Both the position numbers and the translations under genes were made by a program. Shown here piece by piece: positions 3,354 to 46,867 of a stretch of 64,000 nucleotides of DNA. Every line of letters begins with the position of its first letter. The first letter of the stretch is position 1. The stretch comes from a virus, in IMG/VR virus record IMGVR_UViG_3300006139_000001, one strand, 5' to 3'. The notes below the pieces were generated by a model that searched no databases, was not told where the DNA came from, and saw only the letters and a list, made by a program, of their open reading frames with translations.

Positions 3354-3680
3354 TTACTGTGCAATGTATTTTTCAATGTGTTTCATAATCGGGTCAAAGA
3401 TTGTTACCGTGCCATACTGCATATATTTATGCTTTGTTTCTTTTGGCATCTGAAGGATGTATGCAACTTCTCCAAATTCTCCATCGCCGCCCAGCTTCTT
3501 ATATTCACGTTTTGCCCAGGCGATGAGCTTTTCAATTTCTTCTTTGAATGTGTCTACATTCTGGTAATGTGTCCGCTTTGCAATATCAATAGTGTAGCCG
3601 ACTGCGTAGTTCTCGTTGTTGCTGCTGTAATTATACTTTGCTCTTTCCATCAAATCAACTACATACTTTGGGATGTTCAT
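3354..3680 (-). CDS. Hypothetical protein
   Basis: AAGGAG RBS, first gene after a promoter. Confidence 0.75.
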   Translation of the reverse strand: MNIPKYVVDLMERAKYNYSSNNENYAVGYTIDIAKRTHYQNVDTFKEEIEKLIAWAKREYKKLGGDGEFGEVAYILQMPKETKHKYMQYGTVTIFDPIMKHIEKYIAQ

Positions 3681-3713
3681 ATCTAAACTCCTTTCTCCCT
3701 TGTTTCTGATATT

Positions 3714-3742
3714 ATTATATCACAAAGCGAACTGTTTGTCAA
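3714..3742 (-). promoter_or_regulatory. sigma70/sigmaA early promoter
   Basis: TTGACA-17-TATAAT with TG. Confidence 0.9.
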
Positions 3743-3777
3743 GTGTTTTCTGAAATATTTTTTAAATTATTTTACCG

Positions 3778-3954
3778 TTATTTCCGGTACATACGGGCAA
3801 TTTTCCTTGCCTCTCGTTTTGACTTGCCAACCATCTGACCAAGCATATTGTCCATCTCGCTTTTGTCATGTACCGGTGCTTTCTTACTGCAAGTGTTGAA
3901 TAAGTCAATCGCTCCGCTGATTCCAAAAATTCCAAGTAAAATAATTACTGGCAT
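3778..3954 (-). CDS. Small membrane-anchored protein (58 aa, below track cutoff)
   Basis: GAGGAGG RBS; MPVIILLGIFGISGAIDLF... hydrophobic N-terminus. Confidence 0.65.
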   Translation of the reverse strand: MPVIILLGIFGISGAIDLFNTCSKKAPVHDKSEMDNMLGQMVGKSKREARKIARMYRK

Positions 3955-3991
3955 AACCGTTCCTCCTCGTGTTTTCTTTGTTATGTAAAAA

Positions 3992-4345
3992 TCAGTACTC
4001 GTTATACTTGTCCTGGCGTTCCAGATAGTACTTGTTGACTAAAACCATCTGGCGGGTGAGAATGGTATAAAGACCAACTAGACCGACAAAGATACCGAAG
4101 TATTCCAGGATGCTTGCAACGATAACGCAACCAGTAATAAGGCAAGCGATGCCGACAAGCATAATTGCTACACCCATAAGGCGTTGCTGGCGGTAATAAA
4201 TCGCCCTACGCTCTCTGTCCTTGCCGATGCGCTGTTGACGGCGCTCGTTAAGCTGTTCCCTCATGTTCTCATACTCATTGAAAGACATGAATGTTTCTGG
4301 CTCGGCATATCTGCCACCATAGTTCGCTGAATAGTTGTTACTCAT
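3992..4345 (-). CDS. Membrane protein, 2 TM helices
   Basis: GGAGG RBS before MSNNY; two hydrophobic segments. Confidence 0.75.
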   Translation of the reverse strand: MSNNYSANYGGRYAEPETFMSFNEYENMREQLNERRQQRIGKDRERRAIYYRQQRLMGVAIMLVGIACLITGCVIVASILEYFGIFVGLVGLYTILTRQMVLVNKYYLERQDKYNEY

Positions 4346-6419: not shown

Positions 6420-6452
6420 GTTTTCTGCTTCTCCCTTCGTTTTTCTGATTTA

Positions 6453-6480
6453 ATTATACCACAAAACTTCCGATTGTCAA
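6453..6480 (-). promoter_or_regulatory. sigma70/sigmaA early promoter
   Basis: TTGACA-16-TATAAT with TG. Confidence 0.85.
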
Positions 6481-6542
6481 GTGCTTTTTGAAATATTTTT
6501 TAAATCATTTTACATAGTAAACATAAAAAACTCATTTTATTG

Positions 6543-7013
6543 TTAGTTGAAATATTCCTTTGCTTTGATAAGCGCCATATCAAAATCAAGAAGATTTTCC
6601 GCCTGGTATTCCTCTTTGATAAGAGTATAAAGCCGGTCAACAAATTTTCCGAAAGCTGCAATCATCTTTTCCGCATTGCCGCTCGTTTTGCGGTAGCTGG
6701 CTTTCTTATAATCACAATACAGATAATCCGTTGTAGACTTTACCTTGATACCGTTTTTCCAGGCTTCCATAGTCAGATTTTCCGGCAGCTCGTCAGTGTC
6801 GTTCCATCCGTCTGGCAAGTTGATATTCAGGCAAACCATCATCATATCATTACCGGAAATATTGTTAGGGCATTCGCTGGTATTTTCCGCCATGTGGCAG
6901 TCAATAGTAATGCTTTTACCCATACACTTATAAATGCGACATCCGCAATAGCTCTTTCCGAATTTTTCCGCATACAGCTTTTCAATTTCGGTTTTGAATT
7001 TTGCAAACTTCAT
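6543..7013 (-). CDS. Hypothetical protein
   Basis: GGAGGG RBS before MKFAK. Confidence 0.75.
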   Translation of the reverse strand: MKFAKFKTEIEKLYAEKFGKSYCGCRIYKCMGKSITIDCHMAENTSECPNNISGNDMMMVCLNINLPDGWNDTDELPENLTMEAWKNGIKVKSTTDYLYCDYKKASYRKTSGNAEKMIAAFGKFVDRLYTLIKEEYQAENLLDFDMALIKAKEYFN

Positions 7014-7031
7014 GAGATTTCCCTCCATATT

Positions 7032-7226
7032 TCAAACTGCAATTGTGATTGCCCCATCAATGGTATTTACACGGATAATATCACAATTCATATAGTTTTC
7101 AACTTTTTCGTTCCATTCGGTTTTAGATACTTCGCACATTTTTCCGTTAAAAACTTCCATGCATCCATCATAAATGATAATGTGAGTACCGCCACTAATC
7201 ACGGAAAGGATATTCCACAATTTCAT
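7032..7226 (-). CDS. Hypothetical protein
   Basis: GGAGG RBS, overlaps upstream stop. Confidence 0.7.
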   Translation of the reverse strand: MKLWNILSVISGGTHIIIYDGCMEVFNGKMCEVSKTEWNEKVENYMNCDIIRVNTIDGAITIAV

Positions 7227-7741
7227 TTTTTCCTCCTAATCAGTCGCAGCGCTTCTTCTAAATCGCTGATTTTTTCGTCTTGCTTTTTCGTCGTGTTCTT
7301 GTTGTGGTACTTGAAATAATCAACCAAATTTTCCGCAGCTCTGATAACCTCATCCATATAAAGCGCTTTCAGGTCAACATCCGTTTCGTGAATTTCCGGC
7401 TTTTCGCCAACATCCAGAAGATAGCGCACGGTTTCAAAATTTCCATTTCGGTATGCTCCGGCGATAAGGCTATGACAGATTCCAAACTTTTCATATGTGC
7501 GCCCGATTTTTCCGCCGTTCATATAGTACGCCTTCAGCGTTTCAATTTCTCCGCTGCAAGCAGCGCCCCACAAAATTTCCGTTATTTCGTCCTGTTCTCT
7601 CTGAATTTCCACAAGCGCCCATTTGTAAAGGTCAGCACCGTATCTGTCTCTGATTTCGTCTAGTTTTTCCACGTCATAGGGGTCATGTGCTGCCTTGACA
7701 AGATTATAAACTGTTTCATGTGCTGCTGTTCGTATCATCAA
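7223..7741 (-). CDS. Ankyrin-like repeat protein
   Basis: LWGAACSGEIETLKAY and LIAGAYRNGNFETVRYLLDVG resemble two ankyrin repeats. Confidence 0.55.
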   Translation of the reverse strand: MMIRTAAHETVYNLVKAAHDPYDVEKLDEIRDRYGADLYKWALVEIQREQDEITEILWGAACSGEIETLKAYYMNGGKIGRTYEKFGICHSLIAGAYRNGNFETVRYLLDVGEKPEIHETDVDLKALYMDEVIRAAENLVDYFKYHNKNTTKKQDEKISDLEEALRLIRRKK

Positions 7742-7750
7742 ATTTTCCTC

Positions 7751-7915
7751 CTATTCCATATTACGCTCTAGCTCAAACGCCGCTATTTTATATGCTTCTG
7801 ATTTTCCATTATATTGGCTTTTTTCCTCCGGATTTTCCGCTCGATGCGCTTTTACTTCAAAGTGATAGGCAAGCTCTTTGAAATAGGCGATAGTTTTCGC
7901 CTTCGTCCTTTTCAT
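7751..7915 (-). CDS. Small hypothetical protein (54 aa)
   Basis: TGATG coupling to the upstream gene; MKRTKAKTIAYFKEL... Confidence 0.65.
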   Translation of the reverse strand: MKRTKAKTIAYFKELAYHFEVKAHRAENPEEKSQYNGKSEAYKIAAFELERNME

Positions 7916-9178: not shown

Positions 9179-9265
9179 CTATGCGGCTTTGGACGCTCTG
9201 CCCTGGCTGCATTACATCCCGCTTTCGTTCATTCCCCCTTCGTGCGGGATGCCATCTGCATTTAG
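9179..9265 (-). ncRNA. Twister self-cleaving ribozyme (P5-type permutation)
   Basis: UGCA-GA-UGG-[P1 CAUCCCGC/GCGGGAUG]-U^AA-UGCA-GC...P4 GCG-UCCAAAGC-CGC; pseudoknots T1 UGG/CCA and T2 GC/GC; predicted cut 9214/9213. Confidence 0.8.
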
Positions 9266-10202: not shown

Positions 10203-10267
10203 AGCGGGCTTGTAACCGCCTTCGGCTGCATTACCGGCAGCGGATTTTCGCCGCCGTTACTCTGCAT
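10203..10267 (-). ncRNA. Twister self-cleaving ribozyme (P5-type permutation)
   Basis: UGCA-GA-GUA-A-[P1 CGGCGGCG/CGCUGCCG]-G-U^AA-UGCA-GC...P4 GCGG-UUACAAGC-CCGC; T1 GUA/UAC; predicted cut 10233/10232. Confidence 0.88.
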
Positions 10268-17360: not shown

Positions 17361-17448
17361 GGGTAGGTAGAGCGTAACTGGTATCGCACCGGACTGTAAA
17401 TCCGGCTCTTAATTGACACTGTTGGTTCAAGTCCAACCCTGCCCACCA
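17361..17448 (+). tRNA. tRNA-Tyr(GTA)
   Basis: Cloverleaf, CCGGA-CTGTAAA-TCCGG, long variable arm, encoded CCA. Confidence 0.95.
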
Positions 17449-17455
17449 ACTGAAC

Positions 17456-17530
17456 GGCTCGTTGGTATAATGGCTATTATATCGGACTGTCTCTCCGAAA
17501 ATGAGGGTTCAATTCCCTCACGGGTCGCCA
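17456..17530 (+). tRNA. tRNA-Asp(GTC)
   Basis: TCGGA-CTGTCTC-TCCGA, TTC loop, CCA. Confidence 0.92.
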
Positions 17531-17539
17531 TTTATATAT

Positions 17540-17615
17540 TCTCACATAGTTCAGCCGGTAGAACACCTGACTGTTAATCAGGGAGTCGTAGGTTCGAGTC
17601 CTACTGTGAGAGCCA
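17540..17615 (+). tRNA. tRNA-Asn(GTT)
   Basis: CCTGA-CTGTTAA-TCAGG, CCA. Confidence 0.95.
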
Positions 17616-17618
17616 TAT

Positions 17619-17695
17619 GAGGGCATCGTCTAACAGGTATAGGACATAACCCTTTCAAGGTTATAATGCGAGTTCGAGTCTCGCTGCCCTTACCA
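17619..17695 (+). tRNA. tRNA-Glu(TTC)
   Basis: TAACC-CTTTCAA-GGTTA, CCA. Confidence 0.93.
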
Positions 17696-17699
17696 ATAT

Positions 17700-17775
17700 G
17701 CTGGTGTGGCGCAACTGGTAGCGCAACTGACTTGTAATCAGTAGGTTGCAGGTTCAATTCCTGTCGCCAGCTCCA
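17700..17775 (+). tRNA. tRNA-Thr(TGT)
   Basis: ACTGA-CTTGTAA-TCAGT, CCA. Confidence 0.95.
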
Positions 17776-22189: not shown

Positions 22190-22266
22190 TGCGGAGTAGA
22201 GCAGTTGGTCAGCTCGTTTGCCTCATAAGCAAAAGGTCTGCGGTTCAAATCCGCACTCCGCAACCA
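22190..22266 (+). tRNA. tRNA-Met(CAT), initiator-like body with altered anticodon stem
   Basis: TGCGGAG/CTCCGCA acceptor, GAGC/GCTC D-stem, TTTGC-CTCATAA-GCAAA, CCA. Confidence 0.92.
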
Positions 22267-29894: not shown

Positions 29895-30386
29895 ATGGCA
29901 GAAACAAAAAATAATGAACAGGTTGAATTAAATCTTGAACAGAAAGTCACCGTGAAGAATATTGCCGGATGGACTGTTGGTTTTGCAAGAATTGATAGTA
30001 ATGGTGATGTTACTATTACTGCCGATGGTAGCACTAAGCTAACCAGAAACGAAATTATTGCACAGGTTCAGAACGGAAATAGATTGTTTACCGGTGTTAA
30101 TGGTGATGGTAGCCATGCTACCCTATTCATTGATGATGAGCCAACTCGTAAAGAAGTAGGATTTGATAGCGAAGATGGAAAGACTAAGCAGATAGTCTTT
30201 AGTGATGCTACTGTAAAACAGATGTTTGCCACAAAGGGTCAACCAGCTTTTGAGAAAGCTCTACATGAAACCATTAGGACAAGGGCTGAGAAGTACGCTG
30301 TAATACAGGCTATCAAGAGATTGAAGATTAATGATTACAGTAAGATTCGACTTGTTGAGGATTATACTGGATTTAAAGTACAGTAA
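29895..30386 (+). CDS. Head-associated hypothetical protein
   Basis: ORF after the MCP, GAGGT RBS. Confidence 0.7.
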   Translation: MAETKNNEQVELNLEQKVTVKNIAGWTVGFARIDSNGDVTITADGSTKLTRNEIIAQVQNGNRLFTGVNGDGSHATLFIDDEPTRKEVGFDSEDGKTKQIVFSDATVKQMFATKGQPAFEKALHETIRTRAEKYAVIQAIKRLKINDYSKIRLVEDYTGFKVQ

Positions 30387-30403
30387 ATGAAATGGAGGTA
30401 ATT

Positions 30404-30802
30404 ATGGCTAATACACCAACAAAAGCGCAAGAAGTGTATGATAGCTTTGAAGCCTCATTCCAAGATAAAAGTATTATCCCAATTACATTAGAGTATGAAT
30501 GGTTGCTTAAAGCGGTAGCAAGATACTCAATAGAACTCGACCCTATCTCTTTTGATGAAGATATTCTTGAATTTGATACGAAACTTGATAGATATGTTAT
30601 AGATACACTTGCTGCATTTATGAAACAGAGTTATCAAGAGCGTGAAGTTTCAAAAGTAAATAAGCGAGTTTCTATTGTCGGCAAAGATATTAGCATTGAT
30701 GGTAATAACGGTTCTAAAACTGCTGCAAAAAATGAGTTGCTATACGATGAGAGTAAATCCAATCAAATGATTGACAATCAAAAGCCAACCGCTTATGTGT
30801 AA
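30404..30802 (+). CDS. Putative head-tail adaptor
   Basis: Synteny; GGAGGT RBS. Confidence 0.55.
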   Translation: MANTPTKAQEVYDSFEASFQDKSIIPITLEYEWLLKAVARYSIELDPISFDEDILEFDTKLDRYVIDTLAAFMKQSYQEREVSKVNKRVSIVGKDISIDGNNGSKTAAKNELLYDESKSNQMIDNQKPTAYV

Positions 30803-36296: not shown

Positions 36297-36317
36297 AACT
36301 TGAAAGGAAGTGATTGT

Positions 36318-37364
36318 ATGCCACGAGAAGGTAGAACCACTGTTTATAATAAGATTACTTCCGAAGAAAAGTTGAAAGAGGTTAATCCAGAGAATTTAGA
36401 ATTAGAGAACGACTTTATTGAATACTTAGAATCTATTGATAGGTCTAAAGGAACTATTAAGCAATATCGCGCAAATCTTCATGTGTTTTGGTGTTGGAAT
36501 TTAGAATTTAATAAAAACAAGTTTTTTGTTGATTTAACAAAGAGAGAGATTGCAAAATTCCAAAGCCATGCCATGAATCAGTGGCAATGGTCGCCTAAGA
36601 GAATTAGAACTGTTAAGGCAGCAATCAGCAGTTTGTCAAACTACATAGAAAACATTTTAGATGATGAATACGATGGGTATAAACCGATTGTTAGAAAGAT
36701 TGAATCTCCTGCTGATACTGCTGTTCGTACAAAGACAGTTTTTCAGGATGATGATTTAGAGGTATTGCTTTCAAAACTTGTTGAGCGTAAGCAATATATG
36801 AAAGCCTGTATGCTTTCTCTTGCTATGAATAGCGGAAGAAGGAAGGCAGAACTGCCAAGATTTAAGGTTTCATATTTTACTGATAAAAATTTGATTTGTG
36901 ATGGCGCACTTTATAAAACGCCAGAAAAAGTCACAACAAAAGGTAGAGGTTCAAGAGGTAAGCCACTTGACCTATATACTCTATCGAAACCATTTAAACC
37001 ATATCTTGATATGTGGTTACAAGAACGTGAAAGACTTGGAATTGAATGCGATTGGTTATTTCCTAAGTACAAAAATGGAAAATGGCTAAATGAACAGGTT
37101 GATTCCTCTCTACTTGATTCTTGGGCTAGAACATTTTCAAATATGCTTGGTAAGTCATTCTATTGGCATAGCCTAAGACACTATTTTACAACTAAGCTAA
37201 AATCTTCTGGTATTCCAGACAGCGTTGTACAGGATGTTATCGGATGGGACTCTGCTGATATGGTTAAGATTTATGACGATACTCCAAGCGAAGAACAGTT
37301 TGAAAAGTATTTCGGTGCCACCGGAATTAAAGAAGTCAAACAAACATCATTAGAAGATTTATAA
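36318..37364 (+). CDS. Tyrosine recombinase
   Basis: SGRRKAE (R), HSLRH (HxxR), IGW and YD catalytic motifs. Confidence 0.9.
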   Translation: MPREGRTTVYNKITSEEKLKEVNPENLELENDFIEYLESIDRSKGTIKQYRANLHVFWCWNLEFNKNKFFVDLTKREIAKFQSHAMNQWQWSPKRIRTVKAAISSLSNYIENILDDEYDGYKPIVRKIESPADTAVRTKTVFQDDDLEVLLSKLVERKQYMKACMLSLAMNSGRRKAELPRFKVSYFTDKNLICDGALYKTPEKVTTKGRGSRGKPLDLYTLSKPFKPYLDMWLQERERLGIECDWLFPKYKNGKWLNEQVDSSLLDSWARTFSNMLGKSFYWHSLRHYFTTKLKSSGIPDSVVQDVIGWDSADMVKIYDDTPSEEQFEKYFGATGIKEVKQTSLEDL

Positions 37365-37434: not shown

Positions 37435-39360
37435 ATGTCTGATTTTAGTGCGAAGATTAGAGCCATATTAGATACTAAGGATGTTCCACGTCAACTGAAA
37501 AGTATAGAGAAAAATGTTATTACATTAAAGCATTTTAAATTAGATACATCTGGTTTACCTTCAGAAATTCAGGCTTCATTAGATAAACATAAATTTAAGA
37601 TAAGTCTTGATGGCATCAAGATGAGTAATGTTGATAGCCAAATGAAGAATGCTGGCAACAAAGCTGGTCAAGCATTTTCTCAGTCTTTAGTAAATCGTAT
37701 TAATTCACAAATATCTAATGGCAATATTGAAGCATCTGTTGCTAAAGTAACCGCACAATATGAGAAACTTGGTGCAACGGGTCACTCTAAACTTTCTGAA
37801 ATCAAAAAGGATATTCAGGAATTAACTACTTTGCAAAGCGCTATGAGTAGTGCAAAAGATAGCACAACTCTTGTTACAAATTATGAGCGGTTTAATAACA
37901 CGTTATCTAGGGTTAAAAATAACCTTACAACTGTTTCCGCTGAAAGTAAAACATTTGTAAGTACTTTGCAAATATCAACGCTTGATAACAAAATTGCAGC
38001 ATGGATGGAAAACAACTCTAAGGCATCTCGTGATTTTGGTGCAAGCATTGATAATCTTCGCAGCAGATTAGCCTCTTTAGATGCTTCTGGAACAGCAACT
38101 ACATCCCAATTAAACGCAATCGAGCAAGAGTTTAATGAGGTTAGACAGGCTGCGATTGCAACAGGACAAGTTGGTTCGTCAGTTGGTTCTCAGTTACAGG
38201 GTGCTTTCCAAAGTATTTTAAGATATGTTTCTGTATCAACGGTCATCTATCAATCAATTAGCGCATTTAAACAAATGTATCAGAATGTGTACGATATTGA
38301 TGTAGAAATGACGGAGCTAAAGAAGGTTACTAATGAAACTGCTGAATCATATAGTAGATTTTTAAAGAATGCTGGTTCTGCTTCAAAAGAAATTGGAACT
38401 ACAATTAAAGACCTTGTTAGCTCAACTGCTGACTTTGCAAGACTTGGATATTCCTTTGCTGATTCACAGGAGCTTGCCAAGGTAGCAAATATATACTCCG
38501 TTGTCGGTGATGAAATTGATAGCATTGATACTGCTACAAAAAGTCTAATTTCAACCATGACAGCATTTAATTCGCAAATGGGTTCTATGAGTCAAGGCGA
38601 ATTTGCAATGTCAATCATTGATAAATTCAATGAAATCGGTAACAACTTTGCTATTTCCTCTGGTGGTATTGGTGATGCTTTAGAGCGTTCCGCATCTTCT
38701 CTTGCCGCTGCTAATAACACCTTAGACCAGTCTATTGCTCTTATTACTGCTGCTAATACAGTTGTTCAAGACCCAGACCAGGTTGGTACTGCATTTAAAA
38801 CAATTTCAATGCGTATTCGTGGAGCAAAGACTGAACTTGAAGAAGCCGGACTTGAAACCGAAGGAATGGCTGAATCAACAGCAAAACTCCGTGAAGAAAT
38901 TATGGCTCTATCTGGTGTCGATATTATGCTTGATGAAAATACATTCAAAAGCACATATGACATTATGGATGAGCTTTCAGCAAAATGGCAAGACCTTACA
39001 GACATTCAACAGGCTTCAATTACGGAGCTTATTGCAGGTAAGCGTCAAGGCAATATTGTTTCTTCACTTATGGAGAATTTTGATATTGCACGAGAAGCAT
39101 TAAAAGATTCTGAAAACGCTGCCGGTTCGGCTATGGCTGAACATGGAAAATGGATGGAATCTCTTGAAGCAAAGGTCAAGCAGTTTACCGCAGCTTGGGA
39201 GGAACTGTCTCAGGTGTTTATGGATGACTCTTTCTTAAAGGGTCTTGTAGATACTGGAACAGGAGTTCTAAGTACCTTAACTAAAATAATTGATAAATTT
39301 GGAACATTGCCAACATTGCTTACCGTTGTAGCAGGTGCAATGTCATTTAAAAACGTGGGT
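37435..39360 (+). CDS. Tape measure protein, exon 1 (642 codons)
   Basis: TP901-type core (ELKKVT...FARLGYS...GTAFKTISMRI...IAGKRQ); ends at predicted 5' splice site GTGGGT|. Confidence 0.88.
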
Positions 39361-39769
39361 GAACTAATTAATCAGTTCCAATTTCTAATTATACTAAGAA
39401 TTGAATATGCTCACGAAACCTTAACTAATGGTAACATGAACGAGGTTATGCGTATGCTCGTAGCATAGCTAAGAGGGGTTTTAGAAAAATAGGATAAACT
39501 GATATAAGTTACGATTCTTATATCAATAGACTGGGACGATAGATGTGTAAAACCGTATATAACAACACGTCTTATCTATCAGCAGCCATTACCTAAATTG
39601 CGAGATTAGGTAGGTTCAGAGGACATAAACCTACATGGTGAAAATCATGAATGTATGTTGCAAACTGTACTCGGCAACGGTATAAGCCGAGGTAAAAATC
39701 AAACTGGTGGCTAACCAGTGTATAGAAAATAGTAGGTCTACTAACCTTTATTGCTTGAATAAAAAAGTA

Positions 39770-40234
39770 TTATTCCCCATCACATATATACTCATAATTA
39801 TTCACAATATCTGTGTATAATTTTTGAACGGATTCTTTTTGTACATCTAAGTTAATTGTAGTTAATAAATAATTTGTAGATGCGATATTTACTTGCATTT
39901 TTATAGCAAGTTCTTTACTATCATCAGATTCCATATTATCTATCAATGACTGCATTTCATTGGAAATATTTAAAGATAGTTTGTATTCATTATAATAATC
40001 CAATGAATGAGAAAAATTATCCGTAATCTCATGATTATATAGTGATATGATGTTTCTATAAAATTCACAGTAATAGTCTGTATAATTTTTTATTTCATCA
40101 TTGAATTGAAATGTTTCATTTATATCATACTTTGAGAATGTTAGTTTAATAGTTTTTTCTGACTCACTACATCCAGAAATGATAATAACGATTGCGAATA
40201 TAAAGATAAATATTGCTATTGTTTTCTTTTTCAT
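39770..40234 (-). CDS. Intron-nested antisense lipoprotein
   Basis: MKKK + hydrophobic stretch + ISGC lipobox; GGAG RBS; very AT-rich. Confidence 0.85.
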   Translation of the reverse strand: MKKKTIAIFIFIFAIVIIISGCSESEKTIKLTFSKYDINETFQFNDEIKNYTDYYCEFYRNIISLYNHEITDNFSHSLDYYNEYKLSLNISNEMQSLIDNMESDDSKELAIKMQVNIASTNYLLTTINLDVQKESVQKLYTDIVNNYEYICDGE

Positions 40235-40259
40235 ATAGAAACATCTCCATTTTTCTTTT

Positions 40260-40288
40260 ATTATATCATATTAATGATGTTTTGTCAA
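40260..40288 (-). promoter_or_regulatory. sigma70/sigmaA promoter for the nested lipoprotein
   Basis: TTGACA-17-TATAAT with extended -10 TG. Confidence 0.9.
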
Positions 40289-40342
40289 TAGTTTTTCTGT
40301 TTTACTACTTGATGATTTTCAAGCAATCATCATTTCAGTTTG

Positions 40343-43300
40343 ATATTCACGAAAATTGAAACAGAAGGAAATACATTTGTTCAAAACCTAAGAAATACAT
40401 TATTATCTGGTTTTAATGGCATTTTTGCATCTTTGAAGTCACAAAACTTTTCTTTTACATCTACATTTTCAACCATATTAGAAAATGACAGAGCGGCATT
40501 ATTGGCATACAGAGAAGCAATTAATAACAATGTTCCGGCGGCGGAAGCATTTAACCAAACAATGATGGGGGCATCTGTTGCTGCACAAGAATTCGCAAAA
40601 AATAATACTGTTAATATTTTAGGGATTCAAAACTTTACAAAAGCGCAAAAAGAAGCCGCTGTTGCTGCAATGGCACAGAACAAGTCGTTTTCATCTTGTA
40701 AAACACTTATCCAGGAATATAGTACTGGTTGTAAGAACTGCGGATTGTCACAAGAACAATTTGTTGCTGCAATAGACAGGTCTAATCCTGCGCTTGCAAG
40801 ATATTTAGCCGGTCTAAATGGTGCAAAAGGTTCATTAGGTGGATATATTCTTTCGTTAGCTAAATCAAAAATTGCTACTATTGCTTTACAAGCAGCAACA
40901 ATAGCATTAAATATGGCTTTAACGATGGGAATTTCGTTGGCTATACAAGCTGTTGTTACTGGATTAAACAATCTAATACATTCTGCAAAGAACGCTTCTG
41001 AGGCGGCAGACGATTTGAAATCTAAGTCGTTAGAAGAAGCAAAGGCAATGCAGGACGAAGTTGCACAATTAGATGAACTGATTGAAAAATATAAAGAATT
41101 AGCAAACAAGGATGTTCAAGATAGTTCTACACGAAATGAAATAAGAGATGTGCAAAGTCAGATTGTTGATTTGGTTGGTCAACAAGCGAACAATCTTGAT
41201 TTGGTCAATGGTAAACTTGATGATGAACTTGATAAGTTATTACAAATCCAAAAGCAAGAAGCTGATAAAGCTGTAGAAAGTGCCACAAATTCATATCACA
41301 CTGCACAAGATTCACAAAATAAAGCTATAGGACAAGATTCTGCTTTATGGATTGATGGCTATGCTTATGTAAGTGATAGCTGGTGGGACAATGAAGATGA
41401 TGTAATTAAAATTCTTCAAGATAATGGTTTTTCAAGTAATGTCCAAAAAGGCGGAGTATTTAACTCTCATACCTTCGTAATGGACAATATGGATGAAGAT
41501 ATGCAATTGCTTGAAGGCGCTGCTGAAAAAGCCGAACTTCTCCAAAGAATGATTGATACCATTAAAGATAATTACACTGATTATGCATCAAGTGATATTT
41601 ATAATGCGCTTATTGACCAAAGAGATGTTTATTTAGAATATGTTGATGATGTTAATGCGGCTGCAAAAGCTCTTGCCAATGCTGTAATTGTATCATCTTC
41701 TTATGATAGTGACCTTTCAAAGATTGGTGTTGACTCTGCGGAAACATTTGGTCAATATAGAGATAAACTTATTGAGATTGTAAAGAATAGTCCGGATTTG
41801 TCCGAAGCATTAGCTGATGGAAGTTTATCTAATGAAGATATCGAACAGCAAGTAACTGATTATTTATCTACATTAGATAATTTCTCTGATTATTATACTG
41901 AATGGTACAATACTGTTGTAAAAAAGCAAAAAGTATTAGAATCATTTGACCCATTAGAGGGTGCTGCCGGTGCGTTATCGCCAGAACAATCCGATGCTTA
42001 TGATAAAGTTAAAGAACAATTAGATTCATTATCAGAAGAAGAATTAGAAATAGCATATAAGCTCATAGGAACTACAGACTTTAGTACTTTTGAAGAATTA
42101 GAAGAAGCCATTCGTACATATCAACCTGAAAACACTATTAGTTTTTCTCAGTTGATAAACAATGAAAGTTTTTCTACTACTGTTGATGATTATATAAACA
42201 AAGTTACCACATTACAAGATGCGCTTGCTAAGTTTAATGATGGCACATTGGAAAATTCAGATATTGTGGAACTTATTAGAAGTTTCCCAGAATTAGCAGG
42301 TGAAACAGATAATCTTGGTGAAGCAATCCAGAATATTATTATTGATTTAACTGGCGGAGAAGATGAGCTTGGCGACTTTACTGGAATATATAAAGTATTT
42401 CAAAGTCAATTCAATAAGTTAGATACTGACGAAGATAGAGCGCAATTACAAGCGTTTATGGACACAGTTCTTAAACTTGGCAAAGTTGTTGGCAGTACTG
42501 AGTTTGCGATAGATATTGAAACAGAAACAAACGGTATGGAGAACTTGTGGACTGCGATGAAGGAGTCTGTATCTTCTACTGGTTTAACTGCCGAATCTAT
42601 CAAAAATCTGAAGGCTCGTTATCAAGACCTTGAAAATTATGATGCTGCTCGTTTGTTTGAGAAAACGGCAAATGGTATTCATCTTAACACTAAAGCTCTA
42701 CGTGAACTTGAATCTGAATACGAAAAGCAGACGAAAACTGATATTGATGAAACTTTAGATTCTTTAATTGAACAGTATAATGACTTAACCGAACAAATCA
42801 ATAATGCAAGTGATACTGCTTCTACAGCAGAATTATATGCAAAGAGAAATGATATTCTTAACCAAATCAATGATACCGCAGAACTTGCTTCGATGTATGA
42901 TGGTCTTACTTCTGCTTTCAAACGATGGGAACAAGCTCAGTCTATTGGCGAAGAAGGAGATATGTATGATAGCCTTACTGGTGGTCTTGAACATATCAAG
43001 GAACTTTACGATGAAGGCTTAATAGGGACTAATGAATTCAGAGCGGCTGTTCAGTTGATGAGCAATGAAGATTTATCAACTGCAAACATTGATGAACTTA
43101 TCGCAGCATATGAAAATGGCTACGGAGTAATGACAAGATACTTCCAAGATAGTTCAGATGGATGCATAAATTTCTTGCGTGATGTTCAAAGTTTAAATTC
43201 TGAATGGGCGCACATGAACGAAGATGGGTCTTGGGAGATTAATTTTGGAGTTGGCAGTGACCAAGAAGTTGCAGATGCTTTAGGAATCAATGTTGAGTCC

Positions 43301-46300
43301 GTACAAGCTATCATGCGGAAATTGTCTGATTATGGTTTTGATATTAACCTGGATTCTATTTTTAGCCAGTTAGACAATTTACAGAGTCGTGCCGAGCAAG
43401 CTAACCAAGCACTTATTGAAATTGGTGCTACAGATATTACATTTAATTTTGGAACAGATGATATTGATTATTTAAACGAACAGATTGAGCAATCAAAAAC
43501 CTTGATTAATAGTTTATATAACAATGATGGAGAATTAAATGTAAAATACAATGAAGATGATGTTGAAAATGCTATTGCTGTTATTGAAAGATTAATCTAT
43601 CGCAAGCAGTCTCTTGATGATGCTGCTATTTTGAAGGTTGATACTTCTACAGCAGATAGTGATGTTAGTAATATTATCTCAAAATTACAAGAATTTAAAT
43701 CATCCTATAATAATCTCGAAGTCCAAACAGCTATTGGTGCTGATACAACCGAAGCGAAAACAGCTTGTGATGGATTACTTACTGAGATTTCTGGTATGGA
43801 TGCTGAAATTCTTGCAACACTTGGCATTGATACAACCTCATTAGACACATTAAATTCAACGGTTAATGCTATTGAGCCAGAGGTTATGGTCAAAGCGGGA
43901 CTTGATGCATCTCTTATTGAGGGTTATCAAGCAGCCGAGCATAATGCTGAAGGTACAGTTATTTGGGATAATAATATTGACAAAGTTACTTCGTGGATTA
44001 ACCAATCTCATACTGCTAAAGCTGTAGTAAATTGGGAGAATAATACACGAAATGTTAAAACTTATTTCTCTGCAACAGGAGTAATTAACTGGGCTAACAA
44101 TGGTGTTAGGGGCAGGGCACAAGGAACTGCTTATTCTAGTGGTAATTGGGGTACAAAAGACAGCGGTGTTGCTTTAGGTGGAGAAATCGGTCAAGAACTC
44201 GTTGTAAGAAATGGCAAATTCTTCACTATTGGAGATGATGGAGCTGAATTCTTTAACTATAAGAAAGGCGACATTGTTTTTAATGCTGAACAAACACGAC
44301 AAATACTTCAAAATGGTAAAATTACCAATGGTAAAAAACGTGGTGTTTCTTATGCTGAAGGCACTGCATTTTCATCTGGTTCTGGTAAAATCACAGGAAG
44401 TGGGAAAGTAATAACCACTCCATCTGGAAATGGAAAGAGTAATGGAAGTTCTGGTAGTGATAGTTCTTCTCAAAAGGAAAATGAGCCAGAAGTAATTGAT
44501 TGGATTGAAGTTGCTATTGACCGTATTGAACGTGCAATTAATAGGTTAAAAACTACAGCAGAAAGCACATATAAATCTCTGAAAACCAAATTAGGTGCTA
44601 CGGCAGATGAAATTACAAAGGTTAATAATGAACTTAGTTTGCAGAGCAAAGCATATGACCGCTATATTCAACAAGCCAATTCTGTTGGTTTATCATCTGA
44701 TTTAGCTGCGAAAGTTCAAGATGGTACGATTGATATTTCAGAATATGATAAAGACACTGCTGCCTTAATTAAAGATTATCAAGAATGGTATGAGAAAGCA
44801 CTTGATTGTTCTGATGCCATTCAGCAACTACATGAAAGTCTTGCTTCTTTGTATGAGGATAATTTTGATAATATTCAAACTGATTTTGATAATCAATTAT
44901 CATTGTTGGAGCATCTAACAAATACTTATGAATCCGGCATAGATATGTTGGAGGCTCGTGGTTATCTTGAAAGTACAAAGTACTACTCTGCCCTATCAGA
45001 TGTTGAAAAACAAAACGTATCTATACTTAATCAAGAACTTGCAAACTTACAACGTGCATTTTCTGAGGCGATGAACTCTGGCGAAATTGAAGAATATTCA
45101 GAAGCATGGTATTCGATGCAAACTGAGATTAATGGCGTTAAAGAAGCTATTGCTGATGCTAATGTCCAAATGGCTGAATATGCAAAAACTATGCGTGAAA
45201 TTGAGTGGAGTTATTTTGACTACACACAAGACCGTATTTCTCAGATAACGCAAGAAGCTGATTTCTTAATTGACCTTATGAGCAATTCAGACCTTTATGA
45301 TGATAGAGGTCAATTCAATAATGCCGGAACAGCTACAATGGGGCTTCACGCTCAAAACTATAACACACATATGGCACAAGCAGACCAATATGCACAAGAG
45401 ATTCTTGAACTTGATAAGCAAATTGCTGATGACCCATATAATACAGATTTGATTGAGCGCAGAGAAGAATTACTTGGTTTACAGCAAGATTCTATTTTAG
45501 CCGCAGAAGATGAAAAACAAGCCATTGTTGATATGGTGCGTGATGGTATTGAAATTGAACTTGAAGCACTAAAAGAACTAATAGATGCTTACACAGATGC
45601 TTTAGATAGTGCTAAAGACCTATACGACTACCAAAAGAAAGTTAAAGACCAAACATCTGAAATATCTTCTTTGCAAAAACAATTGGCTGCGTATGAAAAC
45701 GATACTTCCGAGGAAACACGGGCAACCGTGCAAAAGCTGAAGGTTAAGTTAGAAAATGCGCAGGAAGATTTGCAAGAGACTGAGTATGAGAAATATATTT
45801 CAGACCAAAAGGCTTTGCTTGACGAATTATATCTTGAATATGAAGAAATTCTAAACCAAAGACTTGACAATGTTGAGGCTCTTATTAGTGACATGATTGA
45901 TGTTGTTAATGAGAAAACAGATTCTATTAATCAAACTTTAGTAGAGACTGCGGACAGTGTTGGATATACAATGACTGATAATATGCAGCGTATTTGGGAT
46001 GGTTCGACTGGTGCGCTTGATGGAACTATTTCAAAATATGGGGATAGGTTTACAGAGCAATTTACAGCTATTCAAAGTGTATTGAGTTCAATTCAAGCTA
46101 ATACAGCAGCAATGATTTCAGAGAGCGATTCCGCAGCTAAATCAACTACTGATAACACATCTTCCACAACAACACCTGACGCAAGTGTAAAGACACCCGT
46201 ATCAACTCCTACCCCACCCGCTTCCACGCCAACACCAACAAAGACAATATCTATTGGTGGCAAAATTAATGCTGGAGGTGCGCCAATTTATGATTACGCT

Positions 46301-46867
46301 GGCGACAATACTGGTGAACATCAGTATTTTTCAAAAGACCCAATTTATACTGTTTTAAAAGAGCAAAAAGGGTATCTACAGGTTCGCTGGCATAAATTAA
46401 ATAGTGGAATTACTGGTTGGTTTAAGAAGTCTGATGTTAAGGCATATAAGACAGGTGGACTTGTTGATTATACTGGTTTAGCAAAGGTTGACGGTACGCC
46501 AGGTAAACCGGAGCTTATGCTCAATGCGGAAGATACGGCAAATTTCTTAGAATTAAGAGATGCTTTAAGAACAATGTCACAGCAACAATTGAGTATAGAT
46601 AATGCAACATATAGCATAAAACCTCCACAAGTCACAAATATTGCTGACATTGGAAAACTGTTGTCTAGATTTGATGCTCGTAGTATTGATACAGGAACAA
46701 CTATTACATTTGGTGATATAAAAATAGACCACGTTGAGGACTATAATGATTTCGTAACGCAATTGCGCAATGACCCCAAATTTGAAAAAATGGTTAAAGC
46801 AATGACTATAGATAGATTTTTTGGAAAAAGTTCATTAGCAAAATATAATTACGAATGGAAGAAGTAA
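40343..46867 (+). CDS. Tape measure protein, exon 2 (spliced product 2816 aa)
   Basis: Long helical/coiled-coil sequence, ALGGEIGQELVV and GGLVDYTG...PELML motifs; no RBS at the apparent TTG start. Confidence 0.88.
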   Translation: MFTKIETEGNTFVQNLRNTLLSGFNGIFASLKSQNFSFTSTFSTILENDRAALLAYREAINNNVPAAEAFNQTMMGASVAAQEFAKNNTVNILGIQNFTKAQKEAAVAAMAQNKSFSSCKTLIQEYSTGCKNCGLSQEQFVAAIDRSNPALARYLAGLNGAKGSLGGYILSLAKSKIATIALQAATIALNMALTMGISLAIQAVVTGLNNLIHSAKNASEAADDLKSKSLEEAKAMQDEVAQLDELIEKYKELANKDVQDSSTRNEIRDVQSQIVDLVGQQANNLDLVNGKLDDELDKLLQIQKQEADKAVESATNSYHTAQDSQNKAIGQDSALWIDGYAYVSDSWWDNEDDVIKILQDNGFSSNVQKGGVFNSHTFVMDNMDEDMQLLEGAAEKAELLQRMIDTIKDNYTDYASSDIYNALIDQRDVYLEYVDDVNAAAKALANAVIVSSSYDSDLSKIGVDSAETFGQYRDKLIEIVKNSPDLSEALADGSLSNEDIEQQVTDYLSTLDNFSDYYTEWYNTVVKKQKVLESFDPLEGAAGALSPEQSDAYDKVKEQLDSLSEEELEIAYKLIGTTDFSTFEELEEAIRTYQPENTISFSQLINNESFSTTVDDYINKVTTLQDALAKFNDGTLENSDIVELIRSFPELAGETDNLGEAIQNIIIDLTGGEDELGDFTGIYKVFQSQFNKLDTDEDRAQLQAFMDTVLKLGKVVGSTEFAIDIETETNGMENLWTAMKESVSSTGLTAESIKNLKARYQDLENYDAARLFEKTANGIHLNTKALRELESEYEKQTKTDIDETLDSLIEQYNDLTEQINNASDTASTAELYAKRNDILNQINDTAELASMYDGLTSAFKRWEQAQSIGEEGDMYDSLTGGLEHIKELYDEGLIGTNEFRAAVQLMSNEDLSTANIDELIAAYENGYGVMTRYFQDSSDGCINFLRDVQSLNSEWAHMNEDGSWEINFGVGSDQEVADALGINVESVQAIMRKLSDYGFDINLDSIFSQLDNLQSRAEQANQALIEIGATDITFNFGTDDIDYLNEQIEQSKTLINSLYNNDGELNVKYNEDDVENAIAVIERLIYRKQSLDDAAILKVDTSTADSDVSNIISKLQEFKSSYNNLEVQTAIGADTTEAKTACDGLLTEISGMDAEILATLGIDTTSLDTLNSTVNAIEPEVMVKAGLDASLIEGYQAAEHNAEGTVIWDNNIDKVTSWINQSHTAKAVVNWENNTRNVKTYFSATGVINWANNGVRGRAQGTAYSSGNWGTKDSGVALGGEIGQELVVRNGKFFTIGDDGAEFFNYKKGDIVFNAEQTRQILQNGKITNGKKRGVSYAEGTAFSSGSGKITGSGKVITTPSGNGKSNGSSGSDSSSQKENEPEVIDWIEVAIDRIERAINRLKTTAESTYKSLKTKLGATADEITKVNNELSLQSKAYDRYIQQANSVGLSSDLAAKVQDGTIDISEYDKDTAALIKDYQEWYEKALDCSDAIQQLHESLASLYEDNFDNIQTDFDNQLSLLEHLTNTYESGIDMLEARGYLESTKYYSALSDVEKQNVSILNQELANLQRAFSEAMNSGEIEEYSEAWYSMQTEINGVKEAIADANVQMAEYAKTMREIEWSYFDYTQDRISQITQEADFLIDLMSNSDLYDDRGQFNNAGTATMGLHAQNYNTHMAQADQYAQEILELDKQIADDPYNTDLIERREELLGLQQDSILAAEDEKQAIVDMVRDGIEIELEALKELIDAYTDALDSAKDLYDYQKKVKDQTSEISSLQKQLAAYENDTSEETRATVQKLKVKLENAQEDLQETEYEKYISDQKALLDELYLEYEEILNQRLDNVEALISDMIDVVNEKTDSINQTLVETADSVGYTMTDNMQRIWDGSTGALDGTISKYGDRFTEQFTAIQSVLSSIQANTAAMISESDSAAKSTTDNTSSTTTPDASVKTPVSTPTPPASTPTPTKTISIGGKINAGGAPIYDYAGDNTGEHQYFSKDPIYTVLKEQKGYLQVRWHKLNSGITGWFKKSDVKAYKTGGLVDYTGLAKVDGTPGKPELMLNAEDTANFLELRDALRTMSQQQLSIDNATYSIKPPQVTNIADIGKLLSRFDARSIDTGTTITFGDIKIDHVEDYNDFVTQLRNDPKFEKMVKAMTIDRFFGKSSLAKYNYEWKK

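Follow-up and report, generated by a model that had tools for sequence, protein, structure and literature searches.

Split tape measure gene of an SPbeta-like phage

The IMG/VR record IMGVR_UViG_3300006139_000001 is a complete viral genome of 160.7 kb. We analysed a stretch of it of 64,000 nucleotides (nt; the window), in which the tape measure gene is split in two by what is probably a divergent group I intron carrying an accessory gene. Window and record hold genes for a terminase, a portal protein, tail proteins, a large serine recombinase and two tyrosine recombinases, and for a 925-aa protein with a DxDGD motif that we take to be akin to YonO of SPbeta. The recombinases, the YonO-like protein and the tail genes together point to a temperate SPbeta-like phage. 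Related tape measure genes were found in gut viral contigs and Clostridia bins, and an identical sequence occurs in a rat gut run.

Two open reading frames (ORFs), 37435–39468 and 40340–46867, each match tape measure families. Removing 39361–40342 joins them into a single open frame of 2,816 aa (...FKNVG/IFTKIE...), in agreement with an earlier interpretation made without database searches (the sequence-only reading), which had proposed an in-frame excision of 982 nt across SFKNVG/IFTKIE. The joined frame aligns over the junction with uninterrupted alleles (for example, L002, L014, L036, L061 and L063), the gene is unsplit at this site in two cultured relatives, and an interruption within 70 nt of this tape measure codon occurs in about half of 72 related loci. 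Two separate tape measure proteins are unlikely, because the apparent start of exon 2 lacks a ribosome-binding site in 14 of 14 members and the tail added to exon 1 by read-through varies from 8 to 35 aa across members (35 codons in the window, 39361–39468). On unspliced RNA, ribosomes would enter the intron by 35 codons and cross the P1 and P10 guides; in relatives, this read-through covers 8–35 codons and mostly exceeds the 27 nt that are usual for Bacillus introns (PMC2504315). Such read-through could couple splicing to translation.

Conserved fold and splice sites of the insert

Searches with the tape measure protein, the lipoprotein encoded in the insert and motifs of the ribozyme core gave 19 further loci with the ribozyme, 16 sequences being distinct when the window is included. 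In the 16-sequence alignment, the proposed structure (Table 1) leaves 96.4% of cells paired, with compensatory changes at 45 of 90 pairs (144 cells); none of 500 shuffles scored as high, and slid controls were 31–38% paired. The P3–P7 pseudoknot, P4–P5–P6 and P8 stand in group I order. Compensatory changes occur in each of P1, P3, P4, P5, P6a, P8, P9 and P9.1, and P7 is invariant, with five of six pairs formed. All elements listed in the sequence-only reading (P1, P10, P5, P6a, P8, P9, P9.0 and omega-G at 40342) lie where it had placed them. Its claim of a full group I architecture holds in that P3 and P4, which it had not listed, exist and co-vary, and fails at P7, also unlisted, which lacks the canonical G–C pair. 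P7 and P3 are separated by only 2–3 nt, and the P7.1/P7.2 extension of subgroup IA is absent. On account of the non-canonical guanosine-binding pair, we class the insert as a variant of group I introns and not as a plain member.

The strongest single sign of splicing to come from the sequences is at P10: in L215 and L219, a base change in the guide is accompanied by one in exon 2, at a distance of around 1 kb. The same two loci show a paired change at P1, which involves one exon 1 base and the base opposite it. The U·G pair of P1 at the 5′ splice site is present in 18 of 18, with one compensatory column, and the 3′ end (P9.0 strand, omega-G and Ile codon) is identical in 17 of 17 loci, although the inserts vary from 927 to 2,992 nt and occupy all three phases. 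Between phages the ribozyme core is 82–95% identical, in the presence of synonymous-site divergence (pS) of 0.38–0.81 in the exons and up to 0.78 in the cargo; between the window and L209, the core is 91% identical and the cargo of the same intron has a pS of 0.73. Conservation of the core amid near-saturated synonymous sites shows the RNA to be under purifying selection and excludes recent copying. From this comparison of sequences, we conclude that the gene is split, that the insert has this fold, and that selection acts on the fold and on both splice sites; splicing itself we infer from structure and conservation.

The Rfam group I model RF00028 recognizes introns at this codon in four other loci, with scores above its cut-off in L029 and L060 and below it in L019 and L015. 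A blastn search with the ribozyme of the window gave zero matches among 50,697 deposited phages, and a model of the ribozyme group built from sequence alone found no further lineage. Two alternative pairings were rejected: an RNAalifold helix of 8 bp between 39431–38 and the 3′ strand of P7, because this segment is a GNRA hairpin whose own stem explains all variation, and a P4 register via 39499–39504, in view of the covariation in both the J3/4 hairpin and the adopted P4.

A G opposite G at the guanosine-binding site

In Tetrahymena numbering, P7 has a G–C pair at 262–312, a bulged A at 263, a G·U pair at 265–310 and Watson–Crick pairs at the next three positions. At 264–311, a G stands opposite a G in all 16 distinct sequences; G311 was in no search pattern. 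Published descriptions treat the G–C pair at this position as universal or as completely conserved, and assign to it the binding of both guanosines (PMC3511172, PMC5192423, PMC2860135, PMC9943679). The canonical Tetrahymena site (PMC9943679, PMC5192423, PMC3511172) shares J6/7, the bulged A263, G264, the 262–312 pair, J8/7 and omega-G with the introns described here but has C at 311, where every member here has G. Natural variants reported at the guanosine site concern only the bulged base and the 262–312 pair, and a literature search that covered few subscription journals found no natural G·G guanosine site described.

Thirteen other introns at the same site have G–C at 264–311 and a co-varying 262–312 pair, and one of them shares the G·U at 265–310. 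The 3′ strand of P7 in L007 differs from that of this ribozyme group at 311 only; this comparison and the positions of J8/7 and P9.0 fix the register of P7. A register shifted by one base, which would place a G·U at the site, was rejected as a poorer fit to J6/7 and J8/7 of the relatives. Pattern scans for a G–C version of this exact ribozyme found none.

Guanosine recognition is probably kept, because G264 and omega-G are invariant in the ribozyme group. Judging from base-pair geometry, we give about an even chance to a pocket in which G264 pairs with G311: a G(anti)·G(syn) geometry would leave the Hoogsteen edge of G264 open, and the incoming guanosine would complete a G·G·G triad. A more tentative model, the only one that gives the site a G–C pair, has G311 bulged out and G264 paired with C312, and the remaining probability falls to protein-assisted or altered chemistry.

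Two other ribozyme types also depart from the canonical site. In a second same-site clade (L003–L006, L062 and L221–L242), which usually carries an antisense zinc-ribbon gene, a stop codon lies directly at the 5′ splice site, and three diverged groups (L003, L232 and L239) have G at 311 followed by a co-varying hairpin and then two C; P7 may be interrupted by an inserted hairpin. With G at 311 in this clade as well, the pocket seems unusually plastic in these introns. In a third type (L001:2475–3670), the bulged base at 263 is U and P7 contains an additional U.

An antisense lipoprotein gene as cargo

The cargo is a single gene on the opposite strand, recognized in the sequence-only reading as a 154-aa lipobox ORF; we find the signal peptide and lipobox cysteine, Cys22, in its product. 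The protein has the features of bacterial lipoproteins (basic N terminus, hydrophobic stretch and lipobox Cys), and lipidation is predicted; its mature part contains 24 acidic and 10 basic residues. Eight close homologues are 61–95% identical to it, with Gly21–Cys22 invariant in 9 of 9 sequences, and the four that were looked up all lie at the same place in split tape measure genes. In diverged pairs, the ratio of non-synonymous to synonymous substitution (dN/dS) of the mature part is mostly 0.06–0.15. The structure model is a signal helix followed by a four-helix bundle, with a predicted local distance difference test (pLDDT) score of 71, and fold searches returned only generic helical bundles (best Z 9.9), which are uninformative on function.

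The proposal that this gene takes the place of a homing endonuclease is borne out by the purifying selection and by the lack of any nuclease match in Pfam, PHROGs, PADLOC, NCBIfam or the fold libraries; nor was an HNH or GIY-YIG gene found in the genome. The promoter noted earlier (TTGACA-17-TATAAT) matches the sigma-A hexamers at 12 of 12 positions, and its −35 hexamer and the ribosome-binding site are conserved in six homologues; promoter-like sites across the region total the number expected by chance. On the minus strand, P9.1 is the only terminator-like element of the region and is positioned to stop the cargo transcript before the core. With its own promoter, ribosome-binding site and putative terminator, a G+C content of 24% (36–37% in the exons) and variable presence between conserved flanks, the gene has the sequence features of a moron.

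We put at about evens the suggestion, made by analogy, that the lipoprotein is a surface-anchored factor for superinfection exclusion or receptor masking. Ltp of the Streptococcus thermophilus phage TP-J34, likewise a small acidic prophage lipoprotein, acts on the tape measure protein of the incoming phage (PMC3952083); it has neither a sequence nor a fold match to the cargo among the Pfam, PHROG and fold-library matches, and the likeness is an analogy only. A motif scan of the full genome record found four further small lipobox ORFs, at 3672–4133, 30172–30456, 120000–120518 and 150584–150856.

The sequence-only reading had also placed brackets around the cargo, at 39751 and 40318. Here the pairing of about 39750–59 with 40318–27 comprises 10 bp, was equalled in 0 of 300 shuffles and varies in step on both sides in relatives; the duplex is computed at −12.1 kcal/mol, against −7.9 kcal/mol for two local hairpins. 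Splicing of IStrons declines as their cargo lengthens (10.1101/2023.11.20.567912), and a bracket helix would therefore be useful.

Cargo exchange among related phages

Differing cargos occur in one and the same ribozyme: L064 has DarT and DarG together with a zinc-ribbon gene, L197 encodes a membrane protein along with two more genes, and the small genes of L213–L219 are of zinc-ribbon or unknown type. Cargo is thus exchanged, probably by homologous recombination between conserved flanks. A more distant homologue of the lipoprotein lies in L243 outside any tape measure gene, beside the 3′ half only of a ribozyme of the third type (reverse strand, around 1070–1190) that stands between unrelated phage genes; its position beside a different ribozyme lineage indicates that cargo moves between lineages. 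The sequence-only reading had cast the intron as a splice-out safe harbour for a moron, and the comparative data lend support to this: intron-less alleles are continuous, RF00028 recognizes introns at the same site, and related phages hold the same intron with different, non-endonuclease cargo. That the site serves for cargo across the phage family, and that P7 is non-canonical, had both escaped that reading.

Several same-site inserts are larger, at least 3 kb with several genes each (L017, L018, L020–L027, L046, L055, L056, L066 and L067); by eye, their genes are NYN-like, ATPase-like, transposase-like or unknown, and are candidates for defence-gene mining. The tape measure gene of L210 and L212 also contains, further upstream (around 6430–7780, minus strand), a canonical group I intron whose zinc-finger/endonuclease-like ORF is broken; L211, which is nearly identical, lacks this second intron. 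Three group I introns occur in L060, within or close to its tape measure gene.

Elsewhere in the window, Rfam finds two Twister-P5 ribozymes at scores that pass its cut-off (9182–9260 and 10204–10266, minus strand); both lie between genes of the early region. A cluster of five tRNAs lies at 17365–17772 and one more tRNA at 22190–22263.

Table 1. Features of the split tape measure gene, its ribozyme and its cargo (window coordinates)
Feature	Position	Strand	Remarks
Tape measure exon 1	37435–39360	+	642 codons; PF10145 (E 4e-19), PHROG 4211
Tape measure exon 2	40343–46867	+	2,174 codons; gene callers start at TTG, without Shine–Dalgarno sequence
Group I intron (variant)	39361–40342	+	982 nt
P1	39354–60 with 39409–15	+	U·G at 5′ splice site; compensatory changes
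Two extra hairpins in P1 loop	39361–78, 39379–402	+	Second: 6/7 pairs compensatory
P10 guide	39403–08 with exon 2 40343–48	+	Compensatory changes
P2 hairpin	39428–39437	+	GNRA tetraloop in 16/16; usual L2 partner of P8
P2.1 hairpin	39445–39469	+	7/7 pairs compensatory
P3	39490–95/39628–33	+	Co-varies
Extra 8-bp hairpin within J3/4	39501–24	+	Co-varies
P4	39529–34/39579–83	+	One bulged A; co-varies
P5	39538–76	+	Co-varies
P6/P6a	39585–39615 (P6a 39590–96/39606–12)	+	P6a co-varies
P7	39619–25 with 39656–61	+	G39621 opposite G39660 at expected G264–C311 site (16/16 distinct sequences)
P8	39634–49	+	Between P7 strands; co-varies
P9.0	39662–67/40336–41	+	3′ strand constant in 17/17 loci
P9	39670–91	+	Co-varies
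P9.1	39703–19	+	Co-varies; probable terminator of minus-strand transcript
Further hairpin	39734–47	+	3′ of P9.1
Left bracket of cargo loop	39747–39763	+	Pairs with 40318–26 or kisses hairpin at 40310–32
Right bracket hairpin	40310–32	+	Before P9.0 3′ strand
Omega-G	40342	+	Present in 17/17 loci
Lipoprotein gene	39770–40234	−	154 aa; signal peptide, Cys22, acidic four-helix bundle
Sigma-A-type promoter	40288–40260	−	12/12 hexamer match
Cargo ribosome-binding site	40248–45	−	Within element 40245–40288

Proposed mechanism and alternatives

From the sequences, we are fairly confident that a lineage of SPbeta-like gut phages maintains the insert as a working, though divergent, group I intron that serves as its cargo bay. 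Late in infection, the tail operon would be transcribed, probably by the YonO-like polymerase of the phage, and the ribozyme would fold, with the long-range helix or a kissing pair shutting off the cargo loop and bringing P9.0, omega-G and P10 to the core. Two transesterifications would then join the exons into the mRNA for the 2,816-aa tape measure protein. Transcription of the cargo would take place in the prophage, in the opposite direction and from its own sigma-A promoter, the transcript ending at the P9 hairpins before it reaches the catalytic core. The more specific proposal, that this is an active group I lineage without G264–C311, using a G·G pocket or under the control of a helper and domesticated by temperate gut phages to house exchangeable defence and surface genes within a gene essential to the virion, seems to us an even bet.

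Several points weigh against a functional intron. No spliced junction was seen: among the sequencing runs listed, none of RNA contains the stretch, and the best run (rat gut, contigs only, probably the source sample) has no joints and is uninformative on splicing. The search with a group I covariance model, proposed as a check in the sequence-only reading, was negative: RF00028 has no match to the intron at its gathering cut-off or even at an E value of 10. Given the completely conserved G–C pair elsewhere, a G·G at the guanosine site could cripple self-splicing, and as P7 is invariant in the group, its register rests on homology to L007 and L017 and on the positions of P9.0 and J8/7, not on covariation. 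The covariation counts are inflated because they come from related sequences, and they favour the structure that was derived from those sequences, so the weight is put on individual helices. Of 14 members, 2 lack the bracket pairing and 4 have it in weak form.

One alternative is that the insert splices in vivo only with a phage or host helper protein, or with another nucleophile, its G·G pocket being weak or conditional and serving as a control point in tail assembly. The loss of the G–C pair in 16 of 16 sequences would fit this, as would the additional hairpins of the P1 loop and of J3/4 and the recurrence of short CUAA motifs, possible sites for a protein; the second same-site clade has G at 311 and the third type has a bulged U in P7, and the cargo-bearing ND5-717 intron of corals, with its non-G end, splices in vivo (PMC6545197). 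However, the invariance of omega-G and G264 points to retained guanosine recognition and the intron has no candidate maturase, and we regard this explanation as possible but doubtful. It is improbable that the ribozyme is inactive or capable of cleavage alone, with an ordinary moron site in the gap and a tape measure protein made as two polypeptides. The non-canonical P7 and the two ORFs returned by gene callers would suit such an arrangement, but P10, P9.0 and omega-G would be useless without exon ligation, yet are kept or co-vary; the core is much more conserved than neutral sites, and neither the missing ribosome-binding site of exon 2 nor the variable tail of exon 1 suits two products.

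Two further explanations concern the DNA and the nested gene. A tyrosine recombinase gene (36300–37364) lies directly upstream of the tape measure gene, which it adjoins in many relatives, and inverted repeats flank the cargo, so the insert might be removed at the DNA level with these repeats as recombination sites. This is very improbable: the recombinase gene is also present in the intron-less L014, L051 and L061, the repeats lie inside the insert rather than at its ends, the junctions have no direct repeat, and the conservation obeys RNA rules (G·U pairs and a GNRA loop). A reading of the nested ORF as a neutral frame or as a homing endonuclease in decay, which the frequent endonuclease remains in phage tape measure introns would suggest (PMC2504315), is effectively refuted by its opposite strand, signal peptide, invariant Gly–Cys, low dN/dS, all-alpha bundle and zero nuclease matches. 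The sequence-only reading had itself named a nuclease remnant as an outcome that would overturn it.

Relation to known introns and implications

Phage group I introns are viewed as selfish elements, empty or equipped with an endonuclease. The insert of the window, read as a group I intron kept as a cargo bay, encodes no homing endonuclease. It is closest in setting to TMP-IVS1/2/3 of Bacillus cereus-group prophages (PMC2504315), in-frame group I introns in the tape measure gene that mostly lack a complete endonuclease. Those belong to IA1/IA2 and carry an HNH or GIY-YIG gene or its remains, whereas the intron described here lacks P7.1 and has extra hairpins in L1 and J3/4, a G·G pocket and self-promoted accessory genes. 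IStrons such as CdISt1 of Clostridioides difficile (PMC3984707, 10.1101/2023.11.20.567912) similarly place a group I ribozyme at the 5′ end and protein genes in a long 3′ extension before omega-G. They occupy many insertion sites, and their tnpA/tnpB genes serve the mobility of the element itself; the introns described here keep to one fixed site, with variable cargo that is not concerned with mobility and is often antisense, and the 3′ part of the window intron holds no IS605-type tnpA/tnpB, only the lipoprotein gene. The hexacoral mitochondrial intron ND5-717 (PMC6545197) is also a group I intron of an essential gene that houses unrelated genes and departs from a ‘universal’ catalytic feature. 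By contrast with that mitochondrial, obligatory intron, which holds fixed housekeeping genes in P8 and ends in A, the intron of the window is an optional phage intron with variable genes in the P9 region, ends in G and has its change in P7. Our literature search, with the coverage given above, found no description of variable accessory cargo in phage or tape measure introns.

The intron thus represents a hotspot for accessory genes, the anti-phage toxin–antitoxin pair DarT–DarG included, that is hidden in a core gene which annotation pipelines split in two, and bays of this kind between conserved flanks offer a guide to new defence and exclusion genes. A natural G·G pair that selection maintains at the guanosine site runs counter to a rule presented as universal. 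Because of this pocket, Rfam misses these introns, and their number is therefore probably underestimated.

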